From a virus: DNA of 64,000 nt. The number at the start of each line of letters is the position of its first letter. Position 1 is the first letter of the stretch. Below, in pieces: positions 9,603 through 39,201 of the stretch. The position numbers and the translations under genes are program-made. Below the pieces are notes generated by a model. That model did no database searches and was not told the origin of the DNA. It worked only from the letters and a program-made list of their open reading frames with translations. The stretch lies in the IMG/VR virus record IMGVR_UViG_3300035181_001974. One strand, 5' to 3'.

Positions 9603-9664
9603 CGCTGTGAGGCCATAATTACGGCCATCGATCTTTGACAACTGAGCTGTTCGGTCAAATGCAC

Positions 9665-11277: not shown

Positions 11278-11280
11278 ACC

Positions 11281-11792: not shown

Positions 11793-12391
11793 TGGCATAT
11801 CACGGGTATCTGCCGATGATGAAGAACTTCATTCATCGGTTGCCTCATCCTCCGTTTGTCATCGAGATCGGTGTCGATCGTGGCGTCTCGTTGTTTCCTT
11901 TGGCAGCCTTCATGGCGCGGGCCAAGGAACAGTTCGTCATGGTCGGTGTGGATATTCTGGTCCAAGAGCAGGTCACCATCATGTCGAGGAACCTAGACTT
12001 GAGCCCAAACCAGCAACTGTTCCTCATTCAGGGCAACAGCCTCGATGTCTTGCCCAAGTTGGTCGCGCAAGGCATGAAGTTCGATCTAGTGCTGTTGGAC
12101 GGCGATCACAACTTCCACACTGTTCAACAGGAGCTGCTGCACCTCGAGGACCTGTGTCATCCACACTCTCTGGTCATCATTGACGATTACGAGGGTCGGT
12201 GGTCTGACAAGGACCTCTGGTATGCTGAGCGGCCTGATTACAAGGACGTCAAGGACGCGACTGCCAAGATCGAGACGGAGAAGCACGGCGTCAAGCCTGC
12301 CGTCGATGAGTTCCTTGCTGCGTATCCCGAGTGGAAGACGGCCCGTCCGCTGGCCGGCGAACCCATCCTGCTCACTCGAGTCAATATTTAG
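11789..12391 (+). CDS. Class I SAM-dependent methyltransferase (Methyltransf_24 / CmcI-TylF-like O-methyltransferase fold)
   Basis: VIEIGVDRGVS (motif I-like) and FDLVLLDGDHNFH (typical DGDH acidic motif). Confidence 0.6.
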   Translation: MMAYHGYLPMMKNFIHRLPHPPFVIEIGVDRGVSLFPLAAFMARAKEQFVMVGVDILVQEQVTIMSRNLDLSPNQQLFLIQGNSLDVLPKLVAQGMKFDLVLLDGDHNFHTVQQELLHLEDLCHPHSLVIIDDYEGRWSDKDLWYAERPDYKDVKDATAKIETEKHGVKPAVDEFLAAYPEWKTARPLAGEPILLTRVNI

Positions 12392-12428
12392 CTCCAGTGG
12401 AGCGCTGCCGCGCTTTTGAGGAGATAAC

Positions 12429-13034
12429 ATGAGTGATTTTAAGTTGGACCGCGCTGCGCTAGAAGAGACCCTCGCGATTATGGCGGCTGAAAGAAACGAC
12501 GAAATCGTTGACTATGCGCGTCGGAAGAACGCCGGCGTCGGAACTTCATTGAAGGGAACCGACGATATCGCGGCACATCTGGTCTATGATGACAAGATGC
12601 TGGCTGAGGTCACCAAAGACTGCGCTTTCAACGACCCGCGGATGCACATCGATTCCTCTTTCAAGAGCATAAAGGATTGGCAGGTGAAGTCGGGTGAATC
12701 ATTCCGCGAAATTCGTGAGGATATGCACCTGACACGGGCCGTGCTCGACGAGCTAGCCGACATTGCGCACCTTCAGAAGGTGCAGTCAGAGTTGTGCGGC
12801 AATCTGATGGCTGAGTCCCAAGCTCGTGCAGCTGACAAGTGCATTCTCTTCGTCAATGTCACAAATGAGGATCTCCGTGAAGCAGGCAAGCGCATCGTCA
12901 AGTGCAGCCGTCGGTGGATGGACGGCCATGGTGATGTTGAACCCGTCGACCTGACAGGTGCTTTCGAGGGGACTGAGCCGCTGCCAGAAGATGAACTGAC
13001 GCCCGCGGAAGTGTCTGGCGCTTTGGGTCTGTGA
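12429..13034 (+). CDS. Hypothetical protein (201 aa)
   Basis: ORF. Upstream AATATTTAG motif and RBS GAGGAG. Confidence 0.5.
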   Translation: MSDFKLDRAALEETLAIMAAERNDEIVDYARRKNAGVGTSLKGTDDIAAHLVYDDKMLAEVTKDCAFNDPRMHIDSSFKSIKDWQVKSGESFREIREDMHLTRAVLDELADIAHLQKVQSELCGNLMAESQARAADKCILFVNVTNEDLREAGKRIVKCSRRWMDGHGDVEPVDLTGAFEGTEPLPEDELTPAEVSGALGL

Positions 13035-13100
13035 TAGTTATGCAGCATGAACGTGCTGCAACAAGATAGAAACCTTGAGTTGCTGCCGTGAGGTAACCAG

Positions 13101-13322
13101 ATGACCCACGGAAAAAACAAGAAAAAGCAAGTGAGGTTGCCAGAAGGCGTCTTTTCATATCAACCTGGTCCATCGAGGACAGGCATGATGAAGTCAGGCG
13201 CTGAGGACGTAGATGACAGCGAAGAACTGCTGAGTGACTCAGACAATCTGACTGAGCAGGTCAGAATTTCGCGGTTACTACGTTGGATCGTCATCAAATC
13301 ATTTCTGACAGTCCCGCGGTGA
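13101..13322 (+). CDS. Hypothetical protein (73 aa)
   Basis: ORF only. Confidence 0.3.
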   Translation: MTHGKNKKKQVRLPEGVFSYQPGPSRTGMMKSGAEDVDDSEELLSDSDNLTEQVRISRLLRWIVIKSFLTVPR

Positions 13323-13383
13323 GTCCGTCGGCCCCGGTCGTTCACGACAGGGTATATTTTCACGTTAGCAGGGACTGTGAAGG

Positions 13384-13842
13384 ATGACGGCATATCGGGT
13401 AGTAGATGACCACAGCGAGCTAGGAGGTGTAGGGACACTTACTCACGATCAGCTCGATCAGGTCGTCAATACGACACCATGGGTCATTGTCTCAGGCGTT
13501 GCTGGAACGCAGCCCCCGAGCGCTCGCAGGCTGGTTCAGGGCCCGGGCGTGACAATCACGGACGGGGGACCGGGCGGCGACCTGGTCATCTCTGCCACCG
13601 GAATGTTGACCGGGTCCACCACGATGTGGATGGAGCGACCGGTCGGCCTCAACGACGGCGTCAATCGAGATTTTGCGCTATCATTTGCTCCGACTCCTGG
13701 TTCAGCCTTGATGTTCTTCTACAACGGCATCCTACAGGAACAAGGGTCTGATTCCGACTACGTGTTGGTCTCTGGGTCAATCGTTCACATGCTACATCCT
13801 TACAGGTCGGGTAGCAATTTTCGAGCGACGTATCCGTACTGA
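13384..13842 (+). CDS. Hypothetical protein (152 aa), possibly structural
   Basis: ORF; G/T/S-rich, beta-like composition. Confidence 0.45.
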   Translation: MTAYRVVDDHSELGGVGTLTHDQLDQVVNTTPWVIVSGVAGTQPPSARRLVQGPGVTITDGGPGGDLVISATGMLTGSTTMWMERPVGLNDGVNRDFALSFAPTPGSALMFFYNGILQEQGSDSDYVLVSGSIVHMLHPYRSGSNFRATYPY

Positions 13843-13903
13843 ACGTTCTGATTCTTCCTCATCGATATTTAGTCTCGACCTTAGGTCATAGGAGACGCAA
13901 CCG

Positions 13904-15532
13904 ATGAGGACGTTTGTCGATCAGCCAACCCAGATCTTCAATTCAGACACGTACAATGACGCGTTGTTGGTTGGCGACGGCCTGCAGACCGGTTCTCTCA
14001 GCCTTGAGGATGACCTCAATGCGTTGAGGACTCAGATCAGGCAGCTGTTGTGGGCCGGCATGACAGGCAGCTGGTACGACATGGTGACGCAGGTGTCGGG
14101 CGGTTACGGCATCGTGCCTGCCCGAGGCGTCAACACGTTGGGCAGCGATCTTGCCGATCTTGAACAGCACCGCTTCCTGTTCCGCCGCCAGAACCTCACG
14201 CAGGTCAACATTGCGACGGGTTCAAACTTTGCATTGCTGTCAGTGTCCCTAGGAACGGCACCCGCCAGCCCGGCAGTCGTCGGCCTGGAGCCATATGCCA
14301 CGGGTACGTTGGTTGCCCTCGCAGGAACCTACGGTGCATTTAGCATCGAACAGGTCTCTGGCTCGTCGGCAATCACTCCCAAGAACCTGGTTATCGTCCG
14401 CGACGCTTGGACGCACTCTACCTTGACCACCTCCTTGGGCGGCGGGCAGGAGATCTTCGGCCTGATGCAGGCTGAACCGGGCGTTGCCACAGGCAACACG
14501 TTCGATGATGTCAGCAACCGTACTCAGATCTCGTTCATCTACGAGAAGATGATCAACGGCACCTCGTCGCTGGCACCGGTCCCTGCCTCTGACATCGGCG
14601 GTCGGACGATCAACTACGCCTACATCAGCAGGACGGACCTCAAGGACCTGCCTGAGGATGCGTACCTCTCCAACAACATCTTCATCGACATTCCGCAACC
14701 AATTACGGGTGGTTCTGTGGTCACCCTGGCAGACATCACCCTGCAGAGGGCGATCGACAACCAGGGTGCGACTGTTGTCGTCGACACCACGGGCACCAAC
14801 ATTCAGCTGGCGGCAGGCACGTCCTGGACCTTTTTGAGCGGCACGCAGCAGATGTGGTCGCTCTTCGCAGGTCCGACGTATACAGAGATGATCGTCAGCG
14901 CCACTTTGGCAACGTTTGTCAATGACGCTGTCAGCTTCAAGAGCGGCATCACTGTTGGCACGGGTTCTAACAACCCGATCGACATCGGTGCCTCGAACCC
15001 AGGCGTCATCAGCAGCGCCCTGAGCCTGTTCCTGCAGCCCAGCGTCAACTTGTCACTGAACCCAGGCGGTAACCTGCAGTTCAATGACCAGTACGGCACC
15101 GGTGCGCTGTCATCGAGCATCAACTTCTCGAACAGCATTGCGGAGTGGGATCAGTTTGGTGCACTCTTCGGCGCGGGAACTTCGATTCTCGGCGCGTTTG
15201 ATGCCCTGTCGAGCTCGATCTACACGGCAGTCTCGGGTGCACTACACCGCAAGCGGGCGCAGGCTGGCACCACAGGTGCTCAGTTCATCAACCCGAACGT
15301 CAACGTGACCTATCCGACGAACCTGGACGCGCCGTTGCTCAGCTACGTGGGCAGGGACTTTGCCAAGGATCTCAACATCTACCTGAATGGTATTCTGTTG
15401 GTCCCAGGCACCTCGGCAGGCAATGCCAACGACGTCTACCCGGGCACTTCTGCGGCTACGGGCGACCTCAAGTTCCCGATGAAGATCAGAAGTGGCTCGG
15501 TCATCACCATGGAGGTCTTCACCGGCGGGTGA
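13904..15532 (+). CDS. Putative virion structural protein (542 aa)
   Basis: Large ORF at the head of the structural/fiber gene run. RBS AGGAGA. GATATTTAG motif upstream. Confidence 0.55.
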   Translation: MRTFVDQPTQIFNSDTYNDALLVGDGLQTGSLSLEDDLNALRTQIRQLLWAGMTGSWYDMVTQVSGGYGIVPARGVNTLGSDLADLEQHRFLFRRQNLTQVNIATGSNFALLSVSLGTAPASPAVVGLEPYATGTLVALAGTYGAFSIEQVSGSSAITPKNLVIVRDAWTHSTLTTSLGGGQEIFGLMQAEPGVATGNTFDDVSNRTQISFIYEKMINGTSSLAPVPASDIGGRTINYAYISRTDLKDLPEDAYLSNNIFIDIPQPITGGSVVTLADITLQRAIDNQGATVVVDTTGTNIQLAAGTSWTFLSGTQQMWSLFAGPTYTEMIVSATLATFVNDAVSFKSGITVGTGSNNPIDIGASNPGVISSALSLFLQPSVNLSLNPGGNLQFNDQYGTGALSSSINFSNSIAEWDQFGALFGAGTSILGAFDALSSSIYTAVSGALHRKRAQAGTTGAQFINPNVNVTYPTNLDAPLLSYVGRDFAKDLNIYLNGILLVPGTSAGNANDVYPGTSAATGDLKFPMKIRSGSVITMEVFTGG

Positions 15533-15579
15533 TGATCTCTCACAGTTAACGTGACACTCATGCTCGGTACAATCCGGGC

Positions 15580-16098
15580 ATGAGTGATTTTCACGAGGGT
15601 AGGGTCGCTGCGACGTTTTCGATGGGCAGCCGGCTGGAAAATGCCAAGGAAGTCTACGAAGAAGAAGTCAAGCAGTTCAACGCCATGAAGACAGCCTTCG
15701 GGATGGCGGGGGCCCGTCTCGAGGAGTACAGAGGCAAGATCAAGGAAGACGTCACCACGGGCAAGCTGCCCCTCAAGGAAGGCGAACACGCCTTGTCGTA
15801 CGTCTCTGCGTGCATTGAACTGGTGAAGCAGTTGTTCACCGACACTGAGGCCCGTAGGCTGGCGTCTCATGGAGCGGCAGAGGCAATGAAGAAAGCTGTT
15901 GCTGATGCGAAGGCGGTTTGGGACTCTGAACGAGCTAAGCTCGCGGAAGTCGCCCAGTATGAATCGCAGGTGCCGCAGAACCTGAAAGAGCGACCCGTGG
16001 GTTACCTGCCTGAAGATCATCCGCTTGAAGCTGAACGTGTCGAAGAAGAACAAGCGGCCCCCAGCAAGAAGCAACGGAAGACCAGACCCCAGAAGTGA
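15580..16098 (+). CDS. Hypothetical helical protein (172 aa)
   Basis: ORF; K/E/A-rich. Confidence 0.45.
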   Translation: MSDFHEGRVAATFSMGSRLENAKEVYEEEVKQFNAMKTAFGMAGARLEEYRGKIKEDVTTGKLPLKEGEHALSYVSACIELVKQLFTDTEARRLASHGAAEAMKKAVADAKAVWDSERAKLAEVAQYESQVPQNLKERPVGYLPEDHPLEAERVEEEQAAPSKKQRKTRPQK

Positions 16099-16113
16099 TA
16101 GTTATGCTGCGGA

Positions 16114-16602
16114 ATGGGCGGAATCTTCGGCGGCGGTCGCACACCTGACGACTTTCCTGGTGAGCGGATCGATGAATCGATCCAGCTGCTGCTCGTTTCT
16201 GCCTCATTGCCGTCGACTGACGGCGAGATCTATTACGTTTCCGGATCAGTCTCTGGCAGCGGCTTCTTCTTTCACGAGGAAGGCGTCATTCGCAGGTTGG
16301 GACTCGATGAGCCGACCCACGAGGCGTTGAATTCTCTGGCGCATGATAATGCAGCGAATGGTTATGAGGAGCTGCAGTACAACACCATCGGTCTGACCAA
16401 CCTCACCATTTGGACGGACATCGCTAAGACCCAAAAGCTGCAGGACTACACAGTAGTCTATGGCCCGAACTACAGGTTTATCAATGCTATGACCAGCAGC
16501 GCTTACAATCCTGACGGTTCGTTGAAGGCCCAGGTCATTGAAGTACCTACCTACGACAGCCGCCGTCGCATTATCACTGTGACGCGGACGCGGGTGCTCT
16601 AA
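16114..16602 (+). CDS. Putative structural protein (162 aa)
   Basis: ORF preceded by the GTGATAGTTATGC motif. Confidence 0.45.
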   Translation: MGGIFGGGRTPDDFPGERIDESIQLLLVSASLPSTDGEIYYVSGSVSGSGFFFHEEGVIRRLGLDEPTHEALNSLAHDNAANGYEELQYNTIGLTNLTIWTDIAKTQKLQDYTVVYGPNYRFINAMTSSAYNPDGSLKAQVIEVPTYDSRRRIITVTRTRVL

Positions 16603-17288
16603 TGATGCATGTAGTCCAGGTCGTCATTGACGACTCGTCGAATAAGACGATCACTGGGATCTGGGAGTTCGATCGGACCCTGGGTGGCGTGCTGATCATT
16701 CCTTCAGGATCATCTTTTCCGGTTGTCTCGCAGCCCGGAGAAATCTTCTGGAATACCGCGAACAACATCCTCTATCGCCGAGACGACACAAATTCGTACT
16801 GGACGCCTGTCTCGTCATCAATGCATGGAGGAGGCGATCCTAATGCTGCCTACGCGCTGATCACGTTGACGGGTTCTTTGCCGAATGCTCGTAAGTTGAC
16901 GGGCTCTGCAGGCATCGACGTCACTGATACGGGTCCTGGCGGGCAGTACATCTTCAGTCAGAACGTTGCGTATAACTCTGCTTCACACGCGGCGATCAGG
17001 CAGCTGATTCACCTCGCTGATGGAGGCGGTGGCCCATATGAGACGTTCGGAACTACTTATTGTGATACCGGACCACAACCATTCCCAACGTCATCTATTT
17101 GGTATGCTGACGTGGGCCGGACGAAGAAGATCACAGAACAAATCGTGTCATACAACGCCAACAAGACCTTCTCAACAGTGCAGTGGAAGGTCTATGCACC
17201 TGACGGCATCACGCTGTTGGCAACAGCGACTGACACGATTACTTACTCTGGGATCTTTGAGACTTCTCGAACAAGAGTCATCACCTAA
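16602..17288 (+). CDS. Putative structural or fiber protein (228 aa)
   Basis: ORF overlapping the upstream gene at an ATGA junction. Confidence 0.45.
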   Translation: MMHVVQVVIDDSSNKTITGIWEFDRTLGGVLIIPSGSSFPVVSQPGEIFWNTANNILYRRDDTNSYWTPVSSSMHGGGDPNAAYALITLTGSLPNARKLTGSAGIDVTDTGPGGQYIFSQNVAYNSASHAAIRQLIHLADGGGGPYETFGTTYCDTGPQPFPTSSIWYADVGRTKKITEQIVSYNANKTFSTVQWKVYAPDGITLLATATDTITYSGIFETSRTRVIT

Positions 17289-25973: not shown

Positions 25974-27158
25974 ATGCCGAGCTTTGTGCAAACCCTGCGC
26001 CCGACGCCGTTCGGGTTCTTCGATTCCGACCTGCAGTTTCAGCAGGAAGCCGACTCGATGGTCACCTTCGTCAAGCGTAAGCTGGGCGACGATGTCCTGT
26101 CTGTCGAGCTGACATCCAAAGAGATCTGGGCGTGTTTCGAGGAAGCGTGCTGTGAGTACGCTCGAAAGATTCACGAGATGAAGATCCAATCTGAACTGGC
26201 CAACGTTTTGGGCATGCCCACGGGATCCGCCAGCGATCTGACGAACAAGTACCCATTTCAGACGTTGGAGTTCCTGATGCGTCAGGCCTCGCCATACTCG
26301 ACGTACGCGGGCATGGGAGGCAACTATGACGCGACTCTGGGTTACTTCGACCTGCAGCCCGGCCGTCAGGACTACAACATCTACACAGAGCTGAAGGACG
26401 CAGTCTCGGGTTCAGTCATTTACCAGAACATGACGACCAAGAGCCCGATCCGCGTGATCGATGTCTTTCACTTCGAGCCATATGCTGCTCAGCAGTTCTT
26501 GATGAACGCTAGCAACATTACCAACTTCTTGGCCACTGAGTTCAACTACGAGAGCTACGTTAACTCGACGATCTTCTACGTGCTGCCAGTGTTCGAGGAC
26601 GTGTTGAGGAGGGGCATGTTGAATATGGCCTCCCGCGTTCGTCGATCAAATTACAGTTATGAGATCTTGGGCAGCAACGTCAGGATTTATCCCACGCCGA
26701 CGACGGACCTTGACACTGGCCGCATGTACCTGAAAGTTCAGGCTGGCATGCTCGATCCGTTGAACCCGTCTGCTCTTCAAGGTCAAGATCAGTCGATCTA
26801 TGGTGTTTCGGGTCCGCAGAACGTGCCTCTTGGTAACATTCCATTTAGCAGCATCACGCAGCCGGGTCGCCAGTGGATCAGGCAATACACTCTGGCCTTG
26901 GCCCGTGAGATCTTGGGCCTCAACAGGTCAAAGTTTCAGGGGATTCCGATCCCAAACGCAGACCTGCAGTTGAACGGCGAGTCGCTGATCACTCAGGCGC
27001 GGGAAGACCGCGACAAGCTTCAGACTCAGCTCAAGGAGTTCTTGGACAACCTGACGAACGCTAAGCTGATGGAACAGCAGGCTAACGTTGCAGAGAACAT
27101 GCAGAAGATGTTGAAGTACATCCCAATGCCGCTCGGCAAGAGCATCGTGATCGGGTGA
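25974..27158 (+). CDS. Putative structural protein (394 aa)
   Basis: ORF with CATACTTAC motif upstream. Confidence 0.45.
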   Translation: MPSFVQTLRPTPFGFFDSDLQFQQEADSMVTFVKRKLGDDVLSVELTSKEIWACFEEACCEYARKIHEMKIQSELANVLGMPTGSASDLTNKYPFQTLEFLMRQASPYSTYAGMGGNYDATLGYFDLQPGRQDYNIYTELKDAVSGSVIYQNMTTKSPIRVIDVFHFEPYAAQQFLMNASNITNFLATEFNYESYVNSTIFYVLPVFEDVLRRGMLNMASRVRRSNYSYEILGSNVRIYPTPTTDLDTGRMYLKVQAGMLDPLNPSALQGQDQSIYGVSGPQNVPLGNIPFSSITQPGRQWIRQYTLALAREILGLNRSKFQGIPIPNADLQLNGESLITQAREDRDKLQTQLKEFLDNLTNAKLMEQQANVAENMQKMLKYIPMPLGKSIVIG

Positions 27159-27161
27159 ACC

Positions 27162-27833
27162 ATGAGTAGGTTGTACATCACGCCTCGAGAGCTGAACTTC
27201 ATCTCCGACATCACCAAGGAGTTCATCAAGGATGTTGTCGGTCAGAAGATCTTCTACTACCCGGTCTCTGAGCTCAAGACTAAGACGCATGCGGTCTACA
27301 ATGAGGCCATCAAGAAGGTGGTCGACAATCCAATCGCCATCGATGCGTTGGTGGACAACAACTTTCAGACAGACACCAAGATCGATCAGTTTGGCGTCGA
27401 TCCGCAGTACAAGATCGAGGTCTACGTCCAGCACCGTGATCTGGTTGAAAAGGGGATCAACGTCTCCCTGGGTGATTACTTTTCATTCTCGGACATCTTC
27501 TATGAGATTTCAGACCGCGTCTTCATGCGTAACATCTATGGCCTGCCCGAACACAAGGACGGCGTCAAGTTGACGGGAACTAAGGCCCGTGAGAGCTTGT
27601 TTAAGGCGTTGACCTTGGGACCGACGGACATTTCGAGGCCTGAGCCTGATGCAGTGCAGACGACCTTCGTGCAACAGCGCGGGCAGTCTGAAAACAAAGA
27701 GGGACCGACGGCTGATCGACGTGCATTGCAGGACAACGGAGTCCTAGAAAAGCCGCTGTCAGGCCCCCGTGAGGTGTCACCCAAAGGCGATCCTGACAAG
27801 GTGGGTTCTGCATTCTATGGTGAGGATGACTGA
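27162..27833 (+). CDS. Putative structural protein (223 aa)
   Basis: ORF. Confidence 0.45.
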   Translation: MSRLYITPRELNFISDITKEFIKDVVGQKIFYYPVSELKTKTHAVYNEAIKKVVDNPIAIDALVDNNFQTDTKIDQFGVDPQYKIEVYVQHRDLVEKGINVSLGDYFSFSDIFYEISDRVFMRNIYGLPEHKDGVKLTGTKARESLFKALTLGPTDISRPEPDAVQTTFVQQRGQSENKEGPTADRRALQDNGVLEKPLSGPREVSPKGDPDKVGSAFYGEDD

Positions 27834-29128
27834 TGCCCAATCGCTTCAATGCTAAGCCCCGCGAGAACTACGGAATCGCACCTTTGCCCACGGGTTATCC
27901 GCAGGGCGGGCCCGTCTCTGACCTCGTCATCCCTGCGGTGGGGCTGGAGGACGTCGACGTGGCGTTCTTCAACTTGTTCGACAAGGAGATTCCACTCGTG
28001 GCTGGCGGTGAAGATGGGACGGATATGAGAAAAGTCCCCGTCATCTTTGCTGGCGGCGAAAAGTGGGCCATGTTGAAGCGCAATCGACCGATCCGCGATA
28101 AGACCAATTCGCTTGTCTTGCCTTTGATCACCGTGGGTCGTCCCTCGATCGGTCAGAGTAGCGCTGATGACATTACGGGTCGTGGCATCAACCAGCGCAC
28201 CGGTGAGATCACGATTCGTAGAAAACTCGATAAATCGGACCGTGGCTACCAAAACTTGATCAACAGGATTTTTCTGAAGCACCAGCAGGGGCTCGCAGTT
28301 GGACCCAACGATGCCGACCTAGGCCAGTTGACGACCCTAAGGGAGATAGGCGAGCTGGCAGACGATGCGACAGTGAATGATGGCGGGTTTTTGGCGGCTG
28401 ATCGAACGAACAATGTCTATGAAACGCTTGTCATTCCGAGCCCACAGTTTGTGACCCTCAACTACGAGGTCATCGTCTGGACCCAGTACACTCATCATAT
28501 GAACCAGATCATTGAGACGTTGCTATCGTCCTTCCTACCACAGACCCAGGGTTGGCGACTCGATACGCCCAAGGGTTACTGGTTCGTGGCGACAGTCGCG
28601 GATGACCTTTACAATGCTGAGACGAACTTCGAAGACATGTCGCAAGGCGAGCGTCTCATCAAGTACAAGTTCAACGTCAAGGTGCCGGCGTACATCCTCG
28701 CAAGTTCAGCACCTGGCGTGCCGATTCCTGTCAAGCGCTATATCTCGGCGCCTGACATCAAGTTCGAGACCGGCATTACAGTGTCTGAAGAGTCTGGCGT
28801 GGCTGGAGTTGATGATCCGTTCTTGGGTGCTGATGATCCGACACTGCCACTGGCAGACGGGGAAGTCAGGAACCGCGACCAACGCCGCGATGGACGTGGT
28901 CGGTTGTACAGACAATCATCTGAGATCGACCCGAACGATCCCGCCTTGTCAGGACTTCCGCGCTCGCGCCCGACGAATCGTTACAAGAAGGTCACGGTCA
29001 TTGATCAGAACGGCCGTCCCGCGACGCGGTACGTGAGAATTTTGTCTACGACACCGTCAGTCGGTGAGACTGTCTATTCGCCCTCGAGTGATCTCGGCGG
29101 CCTTGCGATCGTGGTCATTGACGACTGA
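27833..29128 (+). CDS. Putative structural protein (431 aa) immediately upstream of the sheath genes
   Basis: ORF. Confidence 0.45.
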   Translation: MPNRFNAKPRENYGIAPLPTGYPQGGPVSDLVIPAVGLEDVDVAFFNLFDKEIPLVAGGEDGTDMRKVPVIFAGGEKWAMLKRNRPIRDKTNSLVLPLITVGRPSIGQSSADDITGRGINQRTGEITIRRKLDKSDRGYQNLINRIFLKHQQGLAVGPNDADLGQLTTLREIGELADDATVNDGGFLAADRTNNVYETLVIPSPQFVTLNYEVIVWTQYTHHMNQIIETLLSSFLPQTQGWRLDTPKGYWFVATVADDLYNAETNFEDMSQGERLIKYKFNVKVPAYILASSAPGVPIPVKRYISAPDIKFETGITVSEESGVAGVDDPFLGADDPTLPLADGEVRNRDQRRDGRGRLYRQSSEIDPNDPALSGLPRSRPTNRYKKVTVIDQNGRPATRYVRILSTTPSVGETVYSPSSDLGGLAIVVIDD

Positions 29129-29156: not shown

Positions 29157-29165
29157 GATACTTAT
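29157..29165 (+). promoter_or_regulatory. GATACTTAT motif upstream of sheath gene 1
   Basis: Recurrent motif; see findings. Confidence 0.25.
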
Positions 29166-29198: not shown

Positions 29199-32100
29199 AT
29201 GCCCGAGCAGACTTTCAGGTCGCCCAACTTTTTCGAGCGCGAGATTGACATTTCGACCCCGACACCCGTCGGTCCGGTCGGAACGCCTGCCGGCGTTGTC
29301 GGCACCGCAAACAGGGGACCTGCGTTCGTCCCTGTCACGGTCGGGAACTTCGATCAGTTCATTGCCACATTCGGCAACCTTGATCCAAAGCTCTTTGGTC
29401 CGTATGCGGTCAACGAGTTTCTAAAGCATCGCAGCGCATTGACCTATCTCAGGGTCCTGGGCGCGGGTGCCAACGCAACGCAGTCAGACATCGCCAACAC
29501 GTTGCAGACGGGTCGAGTTCTCTCGGCTGGCATGCACCTGGATGGCACTCCGGCCGTTGACGACAAGCTGGGCCGCCACAACGGCGCAATCCAGTTCTTG
29601 GCAGCTCAGCACACCTTGCAGAGCGATGAGGCCTATGGAATCCCGATGTTCACGGACAACGATTCCTACTCGGGATCGACCGTCAACCTGGTCCGCGGCA
29701 TGGTGATGCTGCCGACCACCGCGCGCCTCATGGTCCTGGATGGCAACGGCACCGCCGTCGGCGCCTTCAACGGCAGCAACGTTGACTCGGCCTTGATGGT
29801 TGGTGGCAAGTTCAAACTCGCGATTTCTTCGACCTTGGGCAATGCCTTCTGGAACACGGATGGCAACCCGGGCGTCAGGATCTTCACGGCCTCACTTAAT
29901 CCGACGAGCCCAGACTACTTCGCCAAGATCTTGAACACGGATCCTGACAAGTTCGTCCAGGAGCAGCACCTGGTCTATGCAGACTTCCCGGTCGATGATG
30001 AGCTCGCCACTGCGACTGTGGTCGGCGTCCTCTCGGGCTCCAACAACACCAGCAGCACCTCGGGTGACAAGACCCTTCCGATGAGGAAGGTCTTTGGAGC
30101 CTTCGACACGCGTTACCGTGCACCGTCCACGACGTACTTCATCTCGCAGCCATTCGGCACGACAGAGTACGACCTCTTCAAGTTCGAGGCATTGGACGAC
30201 GGCGAATACGCCAACAACCTCTTCAAGATCGCCATCACGGACCTCAAGGCTTCGCTGGACGATTCCAACCCGTACGGCACCTTCACCGTCCAGATCCGCG
30301 ATTGGAACGACACGGACACCAATCCGTTGGTCCTGGAGATGTTCCCAGGCTGTTCACTGGATCCGATGTCAGATCACTACATCGGCAAGTTGATCGGCGA
30401 TCGCAAGGTCAGCTATAACTTTGACACGACGTTGGACTCTGAACGCCGCGTGGTCGCCACAGGCAAGTACCCGAACGTCTCGCAGTATGTCCGCGTTGTC
30501 ATCGCGGACCAGGTTGAGCGTGCTTTGGTGCCTCAGAAGTCGCTACCCTTCGGCTTCCGCGGCGCGGTGGTCCCGAAGACCAACGACCTGTTGACCGACG
30601 CTTCACCGTCTTCCGCCACTGCACGGTTGGCTGGCGTCCTGGGCGTGGGTTCCGCGTCTTCCCTGTCGGGTTCGATCATCCCGCCCGTTCCTTTCCGCAC
30701 CAAGGTGACGAAGGGCGATGCTCCGGCCGGCGCAGCCTGGCTTGGCCAGCCCGGTTCGACTGAGCTGACACTCAGCCAGTTCTACTGGGGCGTCAAGTTT
30801 GAGCGCAACACTCTGCCGCTCAATCCCAACCTCATCAACGACAAGAACGGTCTGCTCGAGTCGTACACCAAGTTCATGGGCATTCCTAAGTTGGACGCCT
30901 TGGTCTCTGGCTCGGGCGCAGACCAACTGAACAACAACAAGTTCACGTTGGCGAAGGTTGCACTGTCCAATGGTGCCCTGACTGACATCACCTCGTCGGT
31001 TCAGGATCACATGAAGGAAGCAGCTTACATCCGTAACGGCAAGCTCGACCTGACCAACTACACCATCAAGGATCCGGTCCTCGGACCGCGTGTCACATTG
31101 GCCACCTTGTTGGCTCAAGGCAGCGCCTCGGACTTCAATCGCTTTTCGCAGTTCACCAAGTTCATCACCTTCATGGCTGGTGGCTGGGACGGCGTCAATG
31201 TTCTCGACCGCGATGCGAGGAGGATGAATGACAAGGCCTCGTCCTTCGACGCTGGCGGCGGTGCTGCGGTCGGTTACTCGGCGCCTGGTCTGGGTTACAA
31301 CCCGACCGGGACGGGTCAGCAGAATGCGACGGTCGCTTCCTACAAGACGGCAATCGACATCATGACTGATCCTCTGGTCGTCAACACGAACATCCTGGCG
31401 TTGCCGGGCATCCGCGAGAGCTTTATCACAGAGTATGCCCTCAACAAGGTCCGCGACTACGGTCTGGCCTACTACGTGATGGACATCCCATCCTACGATG
31501 ATTCCTCGAACCGTCTGTACGATGACTCGGCAGCACGGCCCTCGATCGATCAGACGGCAAACCAGTTCGATGCTCGAGCGTTGGACAATAACTACGCTGG
31601 CACGTACTACCCGGACGTCTTCGTTGACGATGCGACCAACCGCCGCCGCGTCAAGGTTCCGGCCTCGGTCGCCGCCATGGGTGCCTTGGCCTTCAACGAT
31701 CGCGTTGCCTACCCATGGTTCGCGCCTGCCGGCTTCAACCGCGCAGCGCTGGACTTTGTCACCAACGTCAGCGTGCGTCTCAATGTGCCCGATCGTGACA
31801 GGCTCTACGATTCACGAATCAACCCGATCGCAACCTTCCCGAGGCTAGGCTTCGTCATCTATGGCCAGAAGACGTTGCAGATCAACAAGTCGGCACTCGA
31901 CAGGGTCAACGTCCGTCGCCTCCTCCTGGAGGTCAAGCGCATCATCATGGGTATCGCTCAGAAGCTGGTCTTTGAGCAGAACACCCCCGAGGTGCGTAAC
32001 AAGTTCGTGGCCGACGCAATCCTGCAACTAGGTCTAATTCAGTCCCAGGCTGGCGTGGAAGCGTTCCAAGTTATCATGAACGAGACGAACAACACGCAGG

Positions 32101-32213
32101 AAGACATCGACCTCAACCGCCTCCGCGGTCGGATCGTCGTGGTGCCGACGAGGGTCATCGAGTATATCGCGATCGACTTCATCATCACTAACAGCGGCGT
32201 CCAGTTCGTGTGA
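29199..32213 (+). CDS. Tail sheath protein, paralog 1 (1004 aa)
   Basis: N-terminus ...FRSPNFFEREIDISTP...GTANRGPAFVPV...FG matches the T4 gp18 N-terminal pattern (SPGIELKET...GKFQWGPAF...FG). C-terminus GQKTLQ...DRVNVRRLL...NETNNTQEDIDLNRLRG...V.P.R matches the sheath C-terminal domain. Confidence 0.85.
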   Translation: MPEQTFRSPNFFEREIDISTPTPVGPVGTPAGVVGTANRGPAFVPVTVGNFDQFIATFGNLDPKLFGPYAVNEFLKHRSALTYLRVLGAGANATQSDIANTLQTGRVLSAGMHLDGTPAVDDKLGRHNGAIQFLAAQHTLQSDEAYGIPMFTDNDSYSGSTVNLVRGMVMLPTTARLMVLDGNGTAVGAFNGSNVDSALMVGGKFKLAISSTLGNAFWNTDGNPGVRIFTASLNPTSPDYFAKILNTDPDKFVQEQHLVYADFPVDDELATATVVGVLSGSNNTSSTSGDKTLPMRKVFGAFDTRYRAPSTTYFISQPFGTTEYDLFKFEALDDGEYANNLFKIAITDLKASLDDSNPYGTFTVQIRDWNDTDTNPLVLEMFPGCSLDPMSDHYIGKLIGDRKVSYNFDTTLDSERRVVATGKYPNVSQYVRVVIADQVERALVPQKSLPFGFRGAVVPKTNDLLTDASPSSATARLAGVLGVGSASSLSGSIIPPVPFRTKVTKGDAPAGAAWLGQPGSTELTLSQFYWGVKFERNTLPLNPNLINDKNGLLESYTKFMGIPKLDALVSGSGADQLNNNKFTLAKVALSNGALTDITSSVQDHMKEAAYIRNGKLDLTNYTIKDPVLGPRVTLATLLAQGSASDFNRFSQFTKFITFMAGGWDGVNVLDRDARRMNDKASSFDAGGGAAVGYSAPGLGYNPTGTGQQNATVASYKTAIDIMTDPLVVNTNILALPGIRESFITEYALNKVRDYGLAYYVMDIPSYDDSSNRLYDDSAARPSIDQTANQFDARALDNNYAGTYYPDVFVDDATNRRRVKVPASVAAMGALAFNDRVAYPWFAPAGFNRAALDFVTNVSVRLNVPDRDRLYDSRINPIATFPRLGFVIYGQKTLQINKSALDRVNVRRLLLEVKRIIMGIAQKLVFEQNTPEVRNKFVADAILQLGLIQSQAGVEAFQVIMNETNNTQEDIDLNRLRGRIVVVPTRVIEYIAIDFIITNSGVQFV

Positions 32214-32235
32214 TGAACAAATCCGAACTGTGAAA

Positions 32236-32282
32236 TGCGGCCCTAACTAGCAGCTTGGCTCTAGTTTAGGGCCGCTTTCTTT
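32236..32282 (+). terminator. Rho-independent terminator between the two sheath genes
   Basis: Long hairpin GCGGCCCTAACTAG ... CTAGTTTAGGGCCGC followed by TTTCTTTCG. Confidence 0.6.
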
Positions 32283-32307
32283 CGCGGTATGGATTGCAAA
32301 ACGATCT

Positions 32308-32316
32308 GATACTTAC
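32308..32316 (+). promoter_or_regulatory. GATACTTAC motif upstream of sheath gene 2, downstream of the inter-sheath terminator
   Basis: Recurrent motif; a terminator followed by this motif suggests an independent transcription start. Confidence 0.3.
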
Positions 32317-32336
32317 AACGCAGAGGCTACGAGAAG

Positions 32337-35300
32337 ATGGCACAGCTAAAGTTCGGAAGCGCTGGCGTGACGGCAAGGGAAATCGATCTTTCGGGTCCAG
32401 TGACCCAGGAACCAGTCGGTGTTCCCGCAGGCGTTATTGGCACGGCAGTGAAAGGACCTGCATTCATCCCGGTCACCGTCGGCACGATCGATGACTTCTA
32501 CGCCAAGTTCGGTAAGACCGACGGCAAGAAGTTCGGCCCGTTGGCTGTCACTGAGTGGATGCGCAAGGCGCAGGCAGTGACCTATCTCAGGGTCCTGGGC
32601 GCAGGCGATGGCCGCACGCGGAATGATGACGGCTCGGTCAACGGCGCTGGTTTCACTGTCGGACAGCAGTTGCCGCGCGCCTCAGATGGCACGCTGGACG
32701 GTAACCCGTACGCCAATTCGGGCGCTTTGGGTTCTCCTCTGGGTCGAGCCTACTTCCTCGGCGCGTTCATGTCAGAGTCTGCTGGTTCGACTATCTTCTC
32801 GTCGGCCGGCATCCAAGGATTGGGTTCAACGACTCCCGGTGCAGACACTGCCGCGGTCATCGTTCGAGGCATGCTGATGGCCCCCTCGGGCGTTATCCTC
32901 CGCGTGTCTTCTTCGACAGCCGGTAACTCTTCAGCCCCTCCGTCGAACCTCGTTGCTACCGATGGCACCGCTCACGGTGGCTTGGTCGGCACCGTCGTCC
33001 TGATGGACGCAGGTGTCGCAAAGTCGGACTTCGTGCTGCTGTTGAACGGTCACCAGGGAACGGACCCGCTGTACCCGAACGTTATCACGGCTTCGTTCGA
33101 CATGACGAGCCCGAACTACTTTGCCAACGTCCTGAACACGGATCCCTACAAGATTCAGCAGGCTGGTCACTTCCTGTATGCATCCTGGGACGTTCACCCT
33201 GCTACTGCAGTGGTCACCGGCTCGGGCCTCGTTTCCGCGCTGTCAGGTGCAGGTGCGGCCACGGCGCCCAAACCGGGTGCTGAAACTGCTGTCTTCCTGA
33301 CGACAGCTTCTCTTGCACGCAACGTTGGTTCGAGCACGGTCCCGAACTACGAGGCCTTCACTGATCGTTTCAGCCACGCTAAGTCCCCGTGGATCATCTC
33401 GCAGAAGTTTGGTGGCTCGCCTTCCAATCTCTTCCGGTTGCATGCTCTGGATGCCGGCGCCAATGTCTCGACGCTATACAAGATCTCGATCGAGAACATC
33501 ACCCCGTCGACGGACCCAGCCAACAAGTTTGGTTCCTTCGACCTGGTTCTCCGCGACTGGAACGACCGCGATGCTGCTCAGCAGCCGCTGGAACAGTTCC
33601 GCGGCGTCAACTTGGATCCGAGCTCGGATCGCTACATCGCCAAGATTGTCGGCGATGCTCACGTGTTCTTCGACTTCGACCGCGCCGAGCCGGCCCAGAA
33701 GATCGTCTTCGACGGCAACTACCCGGCACAGTCGAACCTCGTCCGCGTCGAGGTCGATCTTGGGGTTGAGAACGGCACCGTCGATCCGACGGCACTGCCC
33801 ATGGGCTTCCGCGGCGTCGAGCACCTCGTCACCTCTGGCTCTGCTCCTCTGACAAGCGTCACTGACGGCAGCTTGACTGCGGCCACCTACCTGAAGCGCG
33901 CAATCGAGCCGCCGCTGCCGATGCGTTCCAACATCACCGCAGGTTCTGGCGCCAAGGTCCAAGTCAACCCATTGCTCTACTGGGGCGTCCAGTTCGAGCA
34001 CGTGGCCAGCCTGGCGACTCCGAATGCATCGACCTTGAAGAACGCTTCGTTGAAGTCGTTTGCCAAGTACTTCCCGGACTTCTCGGAGATCAACCAGAAC
34101 GTGTCTGTCGGTGACAACACCGGCGCGGTCGACACCGGCGCGTGGGGCATCATTGATGCCGACAGGTTCTGCAACAACCTGTTCACCCTCGAGAACCTGC
34201 AGGTCGTCACGGCATCCACGACGTTGGCTGACCCGACGCAGTGGGTCTCAGCACAGTACGTGCGTGGTGGTGCGATCACGGCTAACGATGCCAACAAGAC
34301 GCGGGCCTTCAAGACAGACGATCTCGTCCAGGCCAACCGTCGGTTCGCCAAGTTCAGCTTCCTATTGCAAGGCGGCTTCGACGGAATCCTACTGTTCGAC
34401 AAGGACTCAGCAGAGATCAACAACGCAGCCATCACGGCTGACATGAACGCCACCAACCGTGGCAGGGACCAGGGCTCAAACGTCCGGACCTACGCCAAGG
34501 CGCTGGAAATCATGAAGAACGTGGTGAACACAGACATCCAGTTGCTGGCGATCCCTGGCATCCGTCACCCGATCGTCACCAACGCAGCGGCTGACGCGGT
34601 CAAGGAACGGTTTGATGCTCTCTACATCATGGACATCGAGCAGTTCGACAACACTGACACTGAGGTCTTCACTGATTCGCAGCTGCCGTCTGTCACCTAC
34701 ACCGCCAACTCGTTCGCCAACCGCGCGATGGACAACAACTTCGCCGCTGCCTACTTCCCAGACGTGGTGATGCCGGATCCTAACACCAAGACCAACGTCG
34801 TCGCGCCACCTTCTGTCGCGGTCCTCGGCGCCCTGGCCTTGAATGATGCGGTCGGTCACCCCTGGTTTGCTCCAGCCGGTGTCACCCGCGGTGCGTTGCC
34901 GACTGTCCTCGAGGCCCGTGTTCAGCTGTCGAAGCCTAACATGGACGCACTCTACGATGTCGCCATCAACCCATTGGTCGCCTTCCCGGGAACTGCCGTC
35001 GGTGGCACCAACCCGAAGGGCGGCGTGGTGGTTTGGGGTCAGAAGACCCTGCAGGCCGCGGCCTCGGCTCTCGATCGCGTCAACGTTCGCAGGTTGCTGA
35101 TCGAGATCCGCCGCCAGGTCCGCGACATCTCGCAGACGATCATTTTCGAGCCCAACAGGGCTGCCACCCTGGCCCGCTTCACGGCCGCGGTTACCCCGCG
35201 TCTGCAGCGCATCCAGGCTCAGGCGGGCCTCGAGCGGTTCAAGGTTATTATCGACTCCAGCACCACGACGCAGCAGGACATCGAGAACAACACGATCCGC

Positions 35301-35384
35301 GGTAAGATCTATGTCCAGCCGACCAAGTCGATCGAGTTCGTCTCCTTGGACTTCGTGGTCACCAACAACATCACCCAGCAGTGA
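32337..35384 (+). CDS. Tail sheath protein, paralog 2 (1015 aa)
   Basis: Same N-terminal (ITAREIDLSGP...GTAVKGPAFIPV...FG) and C-terminal (GQKTLQ...DRVNVRRLL...TTQQDIENNTIRG...V.P) sheath signatures as paralog 1. Both genes are preceded by GATACTTAC. Confidence 0.85.
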   Translation: MAQLKFGSAGVTAREIDLSGPVTQEPVGVPAGVIGTAVKGPAFIPVTVGTIDDFYAKFGKTDGKKFGPLAVTEWMRKAQAVTYLRVLGAGDGRTRNDDGSVNGAGFTVGQQLPRASDGTLDGNPYANSGALGSPLGRAYFLGAFMSESAGSTIFSSAGIQGLGSTTPGADTAAVIVRGMLMAPSGVILRVSSSTAGNSSAPPSNLVATDGTAHGGLVGTVVLMDAGVAKSDFVLLLNGHQGTDPLYPNVITASFDMTSPNYFANVLNTDPYKIQQAGHFLYASWDVHPATAVVTGSGLVSALSGAGAATAPKPGAETAVFLTTASLARNVGSSTVPNYEAFTDRFSHAKSPWIISQKFGGSPSNLFRLHALDAGANVSTLYKISIENITPSTDPANKFGSFDLVLRDWNDRDAAQQPLEQFRGVNLDPSSDRYIAKIVGDAHVFFDFDRAEPAQKIVFDGNYPAQSNLVRVEVDLGVENGTVDPTALPMGFRGVEHLVTSGSAPLTSVTDGSLTAATYLKRAIEPPLPMRSNITAGSGAKVQVNPLLYWGVQFEHVASLATPNASTLKNASLKSFAKYFPDFSEINQNVSVGDNTGAVDTGAWGIIDADRFCNNLFTLENLQVVTASTTLADPTQWVSAQYVRGGAITANDANKTRAFKTDDLVQANRRFAKFSFLLQGGFDGILLFDKDSAEINNAAITADMNATNRGRDQGSNVRTYAKALEIMKNVVNTDIQLLAIPGIRHPIVTNAAADAVKERFDALYIMDIEQFDNTDTEVFTDSQLPSVTYTANSFANRAMDNNFAAAYFPDVVMPDPNTKTNVVAPPSVAVLGALALNDAVGHPWFAPAGVTRGALPTVLEARVQLSKPNMDALYDVAINPLVAFPGTAVGGTNPKGGVVVWGQKTLQAAASALDRVNVRRLLIEIRRQVRDISQTIIFEPNRAATLARFTAAVTPRLQRIQAQAGLERFKVIIDSSTTTQQDIENNTIRGKIYVQPTKSIEFVSLDFVVTNNITQQ

Positions 35385-35397
35385 TTGAGAGCTGACA

Positions 35398-35610
35398 GTG
35401 AAGATCACTTCACAAAAGCTGCGTAAGATCATCAAGGAAGAAGCCGGCAGGGCTGAGTTGATCAGCACCCTGTCGGCCGCCTTCGCGGCCACGCTCAAGT
35501 CTCGCGTTTTGAACATGGTCAACAGGATGACGTTTGAGACTGCAGAAGCCCTGGGCGACGGGCCTTTCGAGCGTTCTCGATTTGAGGACATTGTCGCGCG
35601 CGCGCCCTGA
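35398..35610 (+). CDS. Small protein with a CTS-like N-terminus (family member 3), GTG start
   Basis: N-terminus VKITSQKLRKIIKEE. Confidence 0.45.
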   Translation: MKITSQKLRKIIKEEAGRAELISTLSAAFAATLKSRVLNMVNRMTFETAEALGDGPFERSRFEDIVARAP

Positions 35611-35636
35611 TGGTCAAATTCAGCGGGAAATAACAG

Positions 35637-35987
35637 ATGAAGATCACCCAAAAGCAGCTCCGTCAGATCATCCGTGAGACACTTGAAGAGCAGGAGCTCG
35701 ACGAGATCACGATGGAACAAGGCAAGGTCCAGGCTCCTCTGCAGGCGCTCCACGGGAGTCTATCGTCTGCTAAACAGGCGCTCGGCAAGGCGGGTGCCAA
35801 GAAGGCGATCTCTGAGTTGCTGCAGAATGCTGGCCCGGGCAGCGACGTCATGGACAAGGCGCAGAAGCTATTGAGGGCAATCACTCAGATCGAGTCCAAC
35901 ATCGATGCTGTGATGAAGTGGCTTGGCAATCCCCAAAGCACGGCCTTGACGAAGGATCCTTGGGCCCATGTTGGTAAGCACGGCTGA
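35637..35987 (+). CDS. Small protein with a CTS-like N-terminus (family member 4)
   Basis: N-terminus MKITQKQLRQIIRET. Confidence 0.55.
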   Translation: MKITQKQLRQIIRETLEEQELDEITMEQGKVQAPLQALHGSLSSAKQALGKAGAKKAISELLQNAGPGSDVMDKAQKLLRAITQIESNIDAVMKWLGNPQSTALTKDPWAHVGKHG

Positions 35988-36535: not shown

Positions 36536-37027
36536 ATGCCAGCTGAGACACTTGACGTTACATCGATGCTGCCCAACAAGTTCGAGCCGAAGCGCAAGAA
36601 CCGTTGGGTCCTCATGATCGAAGGCCTCGACGCCTACATCATCAAGACGACCTCACGACCGACGGTGGCCACCGAAGAGGTCGAGATTCCATTCATCAAT
36701 TCACGCCGCTACCTGGCCGGCAAGACGACGTTCAACACCATTCCGGTGACGTTGCACGATCCGATTGCACCGTCCGGCGCGCAGCAGGTGATGGAGTGGA
36801 TCCGTACGTGCTACGAGAGCGTCTCGGGCCGTGCTGGTTACGCTGACTTCTACAAGCGTGACGTCCAGTTGAAGCTGCTGGATCCCGTGGGCACCGTCGT
36901 GGAACTTTGGGACATCAAGGGTGCATTCTGCACCGAGGTCAACTTCGGTGAACTGACGTATGAAGACGGCGGCCCGGCTGAGATCAGCCTAACACTGCGC
37001 TTCGACAACGCGTGCCTGCAATTCTAA
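36536..37027 (+). CDS. Tail tube protein
   Basis: 163 aa. Lies immediately downstream of the sheath genes. Strong RBS GGAGA. Size and composition fit tube proteins. Confidence 0.6.
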   Translation: MPAETLDVTSMLPNKFEPKRKNRWVLMIEGLDAYIIKTTSRPTVATEEVEIPFINSRRYLAGKTTFNTIPVTLHDPIAPSGAQQVMEWIRTCYESVSGRAGYADFYKRDVQLKLLDPVGTVVELWDIKGAFCTEVNFGELTYEDGGPAEISLTLRFDNACLQF

Positions 37028-38261: not shown

Positions 38262-38337
38262 ACGGCCGACACGTGTGCCAGGTCCCTATTTACGCAGTGG
38301 TGACAGGAGGGTAAGATCACCACACAAGGGACCACAA

Positions 38338-39201
38338 ATGTCAGAACAGCGTGAACAGCGAAACGAAATCTTCAAGGGCGCCGCCGGCGTTGATCCTCGG
38401 ATTCCCCAGACAACGACACAGGCTCAGGCTAAACAAGACTTTGGCCTAGAGATCCCAGTCGAGACCGTCCCGCTGCCGTCAAACGGCGCGACCTACCCCG
38501 TTGATTCTCCATTGCACGGTCTTGAGACTGTCGAGATTCGTGCCATGACGGCCCGTGAGGAGGACATCCTGACGAGCAAGGCTCTGTTGAAGAAGGGCAC
38601 CGTCATCACGGAACTGATCAAGTCGTGCTTGATCGACAAGCGCATCGATCCCCGTGATCTGTTGATCGGTGACCGCAATGCGCTGATGGTTGCCGTCCGC
38701 ATCACCGGTTACGGTGCTGAATACGACGCCGAGATCGAGTGTCCGGAGTGTCAGACCAAGGCACCTCACCAGTTCAACTTGGCGGCGCTGCCTCTACGTC
38801 GTCTAGAGATCGAACCCGTTGCCGAAGGCATGAATCTCTTCGAGTTCACGTTGCCCTACAGCAAGAAGACTGTTCGTTTCCGCTTCCTGTCAGGCCGCGA
38901 TGAGGAAGAGATGCTGTCGACTGCTGAGAAGCAGAAGAAGTTGGGCCTGTCGACCGAGGCCGGCGTGACGACGAACTTGCTGTACAGCATTGTTTCGATC
39001 GACGGAGTCGAAGACCGCGCCAAGATCGCGGCCTTCGTTCGCATGATGCCGGCTCGTGATTCGCTAGCACTGCGTAACTACATTCGCGACAATGAACCTG
39101 GCATCGTGATGAAGCAGGAGACCTCGTGTCCTTCGTGCGGTCACTCCGAGGAGGTCGGGATGCCGCTGGGTGTGACGTTTCTTTGGCCTGCAGCCAAGTG
39201 A
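38338..39201 (+). CDS. Hypothetical protein with two CxxC pairs (CPEC...CPSC), putative zinc-binding
   Basis: ATG 38338 preceded by RBS GGAGGG. CTATTTAC motif upstream. Confidence 0.55.
   Translation: MSEQREQRNEIFKGAAGVDPRIPQTTTQAQAKQDFGLEIPVETVPLPSNGATYPVDSPLHGLETVEIRAMTAREEDILTSKALLKKGTVITELIKSCLIDKRIDPRDLLIGDRNALMVAVRITGYGAEYDAEIECPECQTKAPHQFNLAALPLRRLEIEPVAEGMNLFEFTLPYSKKTVRFRFLSGRDEEEMLSTAEKQKKLGLSTEAGVTTNLLYSIVSIDGVEDRAKIAAFVRMMPARDSLALRNYIRDNEPGIVMKQETSCPSCGHSEEVGMPLGVTFLWPAAK

Follow-up and report, generated by a model that had tools for sequence, protein, structure and literature searches.

Nearly all structural and mechanistic work on phage tail sheaths assumes one repeating subunit. 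What, then, is to be made of a phage locus at which two sheath genes lie side by side? The locus considered here is part of a 64,000-nucleotide stretch of viral DNA (IMG/VR record IMGVR_UViG_3300035181_001974; the whole stretch is referred to below as the window), in which two long open reading frames (ORFs) follow each other on the plus strand: gene A (29199-32213, 1004 amino acids) and gene B (32337-35384, 1015 amino acids). An earlier reading made from the letters alone (the sequence-only reading) had described them as two tandem, divergent tail sheath paralogs, probably expressed independently, and had left open whether they form a heteromeric sheath, provide alternative sheaths or include a copy with a non-sheath function. 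Here, we describe the evidence that both proteins are sheath proteins and that the pair is old, and argue that A and B are probably both major subunits of one heteromeric contractile sheath, built around a single gp19-like tube.

Sheath identity of A and B

Both ORFs lie exactly where the sequence-only reading had placed them, and sequence alignment, profile searches and Foldseek agree that they are tandem, divergent sheath paralogs. The pairwise alignment that it had proposed runs end to end: A and B share 36% identity from residue 1 to the last residues (BLASTP, 539 bits, expectation value (E) 7e-180), and their resemblance is therefore far beyond chance. The sheath signatures it had quoted are present, with one letter corrected: A carries RSPNFFEREIDIS...GPAFVPV...FG in its N-terminal part, the segment quoted for B reads VTAREIDLS and not ITAREIDLS, and the C-terminal parts of both have GQKTLQ..DRVNVRRLL..NTQEDIDLN/TTQQDIENN..RG in common. 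At 1.52 and 1.54 times the length of T4 gp18 (659 amino acids), A and B are also, as had been noted, about 50% longer than that protein. A 425-amino-acid open frame on the minus strand (34476-35753), antisense to the 3′ end of B and beyond, is probably a shadow ORF of this G+C-rich and strongly codon-biased gene.

Homology searches, which might have assigned one of the copies to another family, place both among tail sheaths. The PHROG family phrog_23 (tail sheath) matches A with an E value of 6.5e-53 and B with 1.3e-55. PF17482 (Phage_sheath_1C) scores 35.0 bits with B and 20.4 bits with A, the latter below the cut-off of 26.9, and PF22671 (Gp18_domIII_N) is sub-threshold with both (17.7 bits for A and 16.7 bits for B, cut-off 27). 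A profile of the family, compared with Protein Data Bank (PDB) sequences, matches T4 gp18 with an E value of 1e-38, residues 797-1002 of A corresponding to gp18 445-650, and has a weak N-terminal match of just 2.4 bits, which pairs A 5-87 with gp18 2-84. Since the profile alignment accounts for the two ends, the approximately 350 residues by which A and B exceed gp18 lie in the middle of the protein (A 88-796), that is, in its outer part. The middle of gp18 consists of outward-facing domains. No Pfam domain was found in residues 90-790, and an hhalign comparison of the family profile with gp18 of phage KVP40 aligned the C-terminal ~204 columns only.

Predicted structures lead to the same assignment. 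The AlphaFold2 models of A and B (mean predicted local distance difference test score (pLDDT) 81.2 and 79.9; predicted TM-score (pTM) 0.78 for each) have an identical order of secondary-structure elements, and T4 gp18, represented by PDB entries 9mkb and 3j2m, is the best sequence-profile and structural match of both. The Foldseek matches to gp18 (9mkb in the case of A) have E values of 8e-15 for A and 4e-17 for B, at a probability of 1.00, and are followed for both proteins by sheaths of other phages, of a haloarchaeal virus, of a pyocin, of the antifeeding prophage (AFP), of the Photorhabdus virulence cassette (PVC) and of a Streptomyces contractile injection system (CIS). The TM-scores are modest (0.39-0.50, normalized by target length), as would be expected for multi-domain models with extra domains. 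The models have low confidence at their N-terminal ends (A 1-26 and B 1-24), and this would fit arms that fold only inside the lattice. Structure prediction, which the sequence-only reading had suggested as a way of seeing which domains are extra, thus gave a sheath fold for both proteins, although the mapping of the extra domains by sequence failed. The size of A and B is not unusual, since sheaths of 800-1280 amino acids are common among predicted viral structures.

Age and conservation of the pair

How old is the pair, and are both members maintained? To describe it in relatives, 86 loci were fetched and each sheath-like ORF was classified. Wherever the extent of the contig allowed this to be seen, the order is A, then B, with both genes on one strand; this is the case at approximately 45 loci and down to approximately 40% identity to the window proteins. 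Each paralog has more than 2,400 homologs. Among those listed, at least 120 of approximately 1000 amino acids for each, identities are 65-81% for A and 66-83% for B, apart from one B homolog at 100%. On shared contigs the identities of A and B run in parallel (81/83, 79/80, 72/74 and 65/68%). The jumbo phages of this clade are uncultured, and their contigs, 277-369 kb in length, come from many environments. Two adjacent sheath matches of approximately 1000 amino acids in a genome of the clade should therefore be annotated as real and not as an assembly artefact.

In a Kimura-corrected neighbour-joining (NJ) tree with 100 bootstraps, the A proteins form one clade (100% support), the B proteins form another (94%), and the two are joined in an A+B clade (93%). 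The sister clade of A+B, with 100% support, consists of loci that have a single sheath gene, also of approximately 1000 amino acids. This topology places a single duplication at the root of a large clade, in a sheath gene that was already long by then. In one A+T-rich relative (locus L048, 5693-8533 and 8589-11528) the tandem sheaths group together outside the A and B clades, with weak support (61% for the enclosing clade); a separate duplication event, gene conversion or an effect of long branches could account for this.

The two families have diverged to the same extent. The 32 genomes with complete pairs have on average 50.6% pairwise identity in A and 50.8% in B, never less than 41% in either, and the values for A and B are correlated (r = 0.92); conservation is spread over the whole length of both proteins. 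At 185 positions the same residue is at least 90% conserved in both families, and 54 of these positions fall within the C-terminal 200 residues. A further 65 positions are conserved yet differ between the families, among them residues 3, 5, 7 and 9 of the N-terminal arm. Overall, A and B are most alike in the N-terminal 90 and the C-terminal 200 residues, and differ most in the middle, outer part. A and B are thus under equal purifying selection, and the pair is neither a recent nor a decaying duplicate. That one copy is redundant and being lost, for which the bare fact of duplication speaks and nothing more, has a next to negligible probability and is refuted by both genes being intact at approximately 45 loci down to approximately 41% identity, by the lack of any rate asymmetry and by the 185 shared near-invariant positions.

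Some relatives carry large insertions, mostly in B: one sheath ORF has 1630 amino acids in locus L049 (2547-7439) and one has 1475 in L058 (12205-16632), B has approximately 1150-1176 in L022, L031 and L050, and in L062 both members are long (A, 8340-12248, 1302 amino acids; B, 12274-16710, 1478 amino acids). These lineage-specific insertions indicate that several hundred additional residues can be accommodated in the outer part of a sheath subunit. In three loci of divergent relatives an additional ORF of approximately 1100 amino acids follows B (L049, 8062-11376; L068, 3150-6377; L072, 3166-5889). It matches B at 22-24% identity and approximately 140 bits (BLAST) and may share only outer domains with it; we have not counted it as a third sheath paralog, as the L049 and L068 copies lack a sheath PHROG match (the L072 copy was not scanned). 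The window itself was found to contain no third sheath paralog.

A probable contractile sheath of two subunits

What might two sheath proteins do in one phage? A heteromeric sheath is the simplest answer because both genes resemble genes for abundant virion proteins, are under equal constraint and keep the parts that define a polymerizing subunit. The first of these points is drawn from codon usage. With the capsid and tube genes as the reference, from which A and B were excluded, the codon adaptation index (CAI) is 0.619 for A and 0.630 for B, and the effective number of codons (ENC) is 40.1 and 39.4, respectively; the corresponding values are 0.724 and 34.2 for the capsid gene and 0.671 and 42.0 for the tube gene, and other genes mostly lie near 0.5 and 48. 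Among window ORFs of more than 100 amino acids, A and B rank directly behind capsid and tube in CAI.

In the model that we propose, one ancient duplication of a gp18-type gene of approximately 1000 codons would have given rise to A and B, both of which would have been retained and would polymerize together around the single gp19-like tube; that the two co-assemble in one lattice is what we infer. The most likely arrangement would be one of alternating hexameric rings, like that of Pvc2 and Pvc3, and alternating protofilaments (giving A3B3 rings) are equally allowed. In solved sheaths, the N- and C-terminal ends of the subunits form a strand-exchange 'handshake' between neighbours. The ends of A (MxEQTFxSPxF at the N-terminus and ..SGVxF at the C-terminus) are both like those of the single-copy outgroup (F-I/V-SPGVF ... 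TNxGASFED), and B has Mx..F.SxGV at its N-terminal end and a derived, variable C-terminal end. The exchange of sheath ends between subunits has also been described for the PVC (PMC12546770). Given such a role, the family-specific conservation of the ends suggests that A and B may occupy non-equivalent, ordered positions. As the extra mass lies in the outer domains, and A and B differ most there, the tail surface would display two sets of outer domains. The stronger proposal is that the sheath is an obligate heteromer throughout the clade, with two subunits of approximately 1000 amino acids and partner-specific arms, which would result in a doubled helical repeat or in a three-fold (A3B3) sheath, with two kinds of outer domains patterned on the tail surface; we consider the chances of this to be evenly balanced.

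The two genes are preceded by the same short motif. GATACTTA, a candidate late promoter element, is located at 29157-29164 on the plus strand, 35 nt upstream of the A start codon, and again at 32308-32315 on the plus strand, 22 nt upstream of the B start codon, where it is part of the longer GATACTTAC (32308-32316). It occurs five times in the window against 0.28 expected, always on the plus strand (3659, 23462, 25209, 29157 and 32308), and precedes A, B and three other ORFs. The more relaxed ATASTTA is found 12 times against 1.75 expected, 11 times on the plus strand and nearly always in intergenic positions (additional sites at 13034, 16098, 25952, 37510, 53865 and 60319), and ATATTTAG variants lie upstream of the ORFs at 2807, 13904 and 36536, the last of which is the tube gene. 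Overall, ATA(C/G/T)TTA sits 4-35 nt upstream of many structural-gene starts. Among 40 related loci, which range in G+C content from 0.34 to 0.60, ATAnTTA occurs in the 60 nt that precede A in 28 cases and in those that precede B in 23, against 0.9 expected. The T4 late promoter is TATAAATA; by analogy, ATAnTTA is possibly the late promoter element of the clade and, as a by-product of this work, a candidate motif for it.

The spacer between A and B is 123 nt long in the window and contains an intrinsic-terminator-like hairpin followed by TTTCTTTC (32237-32283, plus strand). It starts 24 nt past the A stop codon, upstream of the motif that precedes B, and its stem-loop (32237-32275) has a 14-bp G+C-rich stem with one bulge. 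The segment 32230-32290 folds with -31.3 kcal/mol (z = -5.6), none of 200 shuffled sequences being as stable, and a terminator scan flags the hairpin as well, which bears out the terminator reported between the copies by the sequence-only reading. Its further proposal that the two genes are probably expressed independently holds up in part: hairpin and promoter-like motif favour it in this genome, but a strong hairpin with a T run is present in only 6 of 51 A-B spacers (those of the window, L007, L028, L032, L036 and L065), with unrelated stems, and the 51 spacers have a median length of 41 nt (range -1 to 756). We have therefore rejected the terminator as a conserved part of the arrangement; it is also not a dispersed repeat, as there is no second copy in the window, and the spacer has no match to a known RNA family in Rfam. 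A comparable G+C-rich hairpin lies right after the gp23-like capsid gene (7670-7697, plus strand; segment 7641-7720, -33.6 kcal/mol, z -4.3), and for this reason we read the hairpins as likely 3′ ends or stabilizers of very abundant late transcripts. The spacer hairpin is real but incidental and lineage-specific: in this genome it probably ends or stabilizes an abundant A transcript, and B would be transcribed from its own promoter-like motif.

Several other divisions of labour have to be considered. In one of them, which we regard as rather unlikely, A, with its ancestral ends, is the bulk subunit that forms the trunk, and B is confined to a single ring, or a small number of rings, at the baseplate or neck, in the manner of Pvc4 or Afp4. 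The derived and variable C-terminal end of B and the consistently higher scores of A against the single-copy outgroup would fit such a minor role, and in this genome the hairpin after A could cut read-through into B. However, the codon bias of B is as strong as that of A, which would be unexpected for a protein present in 6-12 copies next to a trunk of more than 100, B equals A in length and in conservation over its whole length, outer domains included, and most relatives have approximately 40 nt between the genes and no hairpin. T4-like baseplates, moreover, already supply a sheath initiator, gp25, which also counts against this possibility. A dedicated paralog does serve as sheath initiator in extracellular contractile injection systems (eCIS), but the initiators known so far differ in structure from the subunits of the trunk (PMC12546770).

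It is very improbable that one copy lies outside the lattice altogether, as an outer decoration or second layer or as an intracellular or assembly structure, and that the other is the only true sheath protein. Extra structures around jumbo phage sheaths are on record, such as the coiled outer structure in phage G (reviewed in PMC13282480), and the differences between A and B are indeed greatest in the middle, outer domains; but the parts that the two share best, the first 90 and the last 200 residues (the latter approximately gp18 445-650), are those that define a polymerizing subunit and a decoration would need neither, and gp18 is the best match of both models, in alignments that cover their whole length. 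More generally, a non-sheath role of either copy is unlikely because both keep the N-terminal segment and the C-terminal core, evolve at equal rates and have a capsid-like codon bias. That A and B are alternative sheaths, so that tails would be made of one or the other depending on host or conditions through separate transcription, we consider highly improbable. Each gene has its own promoter-like motif, and here a terminator-like hairpin separates them, but both motifs are identical (GATACTTA) and of the class found before other structural genes, which provides no basis for differential control, and a gap of 20-50 nt is all that separates the genes in most relatives. A sheath makes no contact with the host receptor, and a switch would thus bring no evident benefit; to our knowledge, no phage switches between alternative sheaths. 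Among the functions that the sequence-only reading had left open, the heteromeric sheath is consequently the best fit, a decaying duplicate is excluded and a non-sheath copy is unlikely.

There are also points that weigh against the heteromeric sheath. Codon bias and equal conservation speak to abundance and constraint and not to co-assembly, the choice of alternating rings is an argument by analogy, and the part given to the two ends of each protein follows what is generally known of solved sheaths. The phylogeny was derived simply from distances, and its deep nodes have 71-93% support. The hairpin after A could lower the expression of B relative to A, which would suit a minor B, even if most relatives are without it. 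Finally, when 50,697 phage records were searched by tblastn, with A, B and the capsid protein as queries, the pair did not turn up in any cultured phage.

Genome setting and other two-sheath systems

The pair is embedded in a T4-like virion module. Upstream of A are a gene for a gp13-like neck or head-tail adaptor protein (25974-27158, plus strand; phrog_211, E 1e-11; PF26809, Phage_T4_gp13, in the orthologs of L001 and L003), an unassigned ORF at the position of gp14 and, directly before A, a gene for a gp15-like tail sheath stabilizer or tail terminator (27833-29128, plus strand; phrog_227; PF16724, T4-gp15_tss, 27.2 bits at a cut-off of 25). B is followed by small ORFs, the gp19-like tail tube gene (36536-37027, plus strand; phrog_4542, E 2e-28; PF06841, Phage_T4_gp19, 27.6 bits, marginally below the 28.2 cut-off), which is the sole one found in the window, and a gene for the baseplate hub (38275-39201, plus strand; phrog_150, E 3e-21; PF12322, T4_baseplate, in orthologs). 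The gene for a gp23-type capsid protein lies at 5742-7643 (Pfam, E 1e-74), and RecA, DnaB-like and PolA-like genes are found further along the window. The order gp13-like, gp15-like, A and B is also seen in L001 and L003, contigs of 357 kb and 277 kb, the former of which additionally has a patatin-like phospholipase gene (PF01734, L001 2378-3244) among the virion genes that precede those of the neck. The window contains a transfer-messenger RNA (tmRNA) gene (9665-10036, plus strand; RF00023, full-length Rfam model, 93.1 bits at a gathering score of 47) with the tag peptide ANDNGVAPLALAA, as identified by ARAGORN, and no transfer RNA genes were found in it.

The B homolog at 100% identity is encoded on a 309,481-bp contig of the Joint Genome Institute (JGI), and the window can therefore be attributed to a jumbo phage with a genome of at least 309 kb. 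Samples that contain this phage include those of the sequencing runs SRR11727740 and SRR11723144. A blastn search of the phage records with the 6.2-kb region returned just a 188-nt patch with 69% identity to cyanophage sheath genes, and the nearest database phages, Phosso (469 kb), Mel-JY01, immuto and KVP40, have one sheath gene each. Only four close matches were obtained when 185,579 species genomes were scanned, all of them phage contigs of the clade (one of 305 kb) binned into metagenome-assembled genomes (MAGs) of unrelated taxa (L089-L092: JBAYGC010000019.1, DQKQ01000203.1, PBIO01000013.1 and NHDW01000006.1). The MAGs are labelled Patescibacteria, Flavobacteriales, Halobacteriovorax and Methylococcaceae, and these labels are most likely binning errors and not host assignments.

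How does the pair compare with known systems? The neighbourhood is like that of T4, with gp13-like and gp15-like proteins, sheath, gp19-like tube and baseplate hub, and a gp23-type capsid in the window, but T4 and all cultured T4-like phages that were retrieved have one sheath gene, whereas the phage of the window has two. Phages with two sheath proteins have been described before (PMC7412058, PMC9230969). The Pseudomonas jumbo phage PaBG has two sheath paralogs, gp76 and gp213, which share 38% identity, arose by duplication and were both found in the virion proteome (Kurochkina et al. 2018, Virology 515:46, as reported in PMC7412058), and the duplication has been placed within the Lu11/PaBG lineage (PMC7412058). 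PaBG thus resembles the phage of the window in being a jumbo myovirus whose two sheath paralogs are similar in size and stem from a duplication. The PaBG sheaths have approximately 530-550 amino acids and are non-adjacent by their gene numbers, in contrast to the approximately 1000 amino acids and strictly tandem arrangement of A and B, and the PaBG sheath is a remote structural match at 13% identity. Since A and B are sisters within the T4-like sheaths and the PaBG pair falls within its own lineage, the two duplications are independent. In the literature searched, we found no other described phage precedent besides PaBG, and no description of the present clade or of its sheath pair.

An uncultured 484-kb phage (L006, LR756508.1) is a second, separate huge phage with two sheaths. 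It encodes two sheath paralogs of 824 amino acids on the same strand (5029-7503 and 8518-10992), both assigned to phrog_23, and its capsid protein is, at 48% identity, the closest to the window capsid in the phage collection. Its two sheath copies share 29% identity, lie approximately 1 kb apart and are not sisters: in the NJ tree, copy 2 falls together with Microcystis phage Mel-JY01 (97%) and copy 1 stands beside the A+B clade. From these positions, the pair is not orthologous to A and B in any simple way.

Outside phages, the closest parallel is provided by eCIS. The sheath chains of the Photorhabdus PVC (Pvc2, Pvc3 and Pvc4) and of the Serratia AFP (Afp2, Afp3 and Afp4) are among those matched structurally by A and B, and the sheath of PlPVC1 is built of alternate layers of Pvc2 and Pvc3, paralogs that differ by an outer 'knob' domain and that use conserved handshakes to form one lattice (PMC12546770). 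The eCIS differ in having three paralogs, including a dedicated initiator, of 350-470 amino acids, and in being non-phage systems without T4-type neck and baseplate genes. The window locus is a T4-like virion module (gp23, gp13-like, gp15-like and gp19-like) and not an eCIS locus with an Afp/Pvc-type baseplate, cap, AAA+ ATPase and toxin cargo. The A/B pair is orthologous to none of these systems; it is an independent duplication within the T4-like lineage and would be a new instance of a two-component sheath.

This result would not astonish a specialist. PaBG, the single published exception among phages, was called 'unique', and a two-sheath arrangement has now been shown to have arisen independently and to have been kept in tandem, under equal constraint and to deep divergence, in uncultured jumbo phages that form a large clade spread over many environments. 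In very large myoviruses, heteromeric sheaths may therefore recur and not be an oddity. The clade also supplies natural sequence pairs in the thousands, with which the co-evolution of the sheath handshake could be analysed, and if its sheath is an obligate heteromer, it would be a natural system in which to study how a contractile lattice encodes the order of its subunits.

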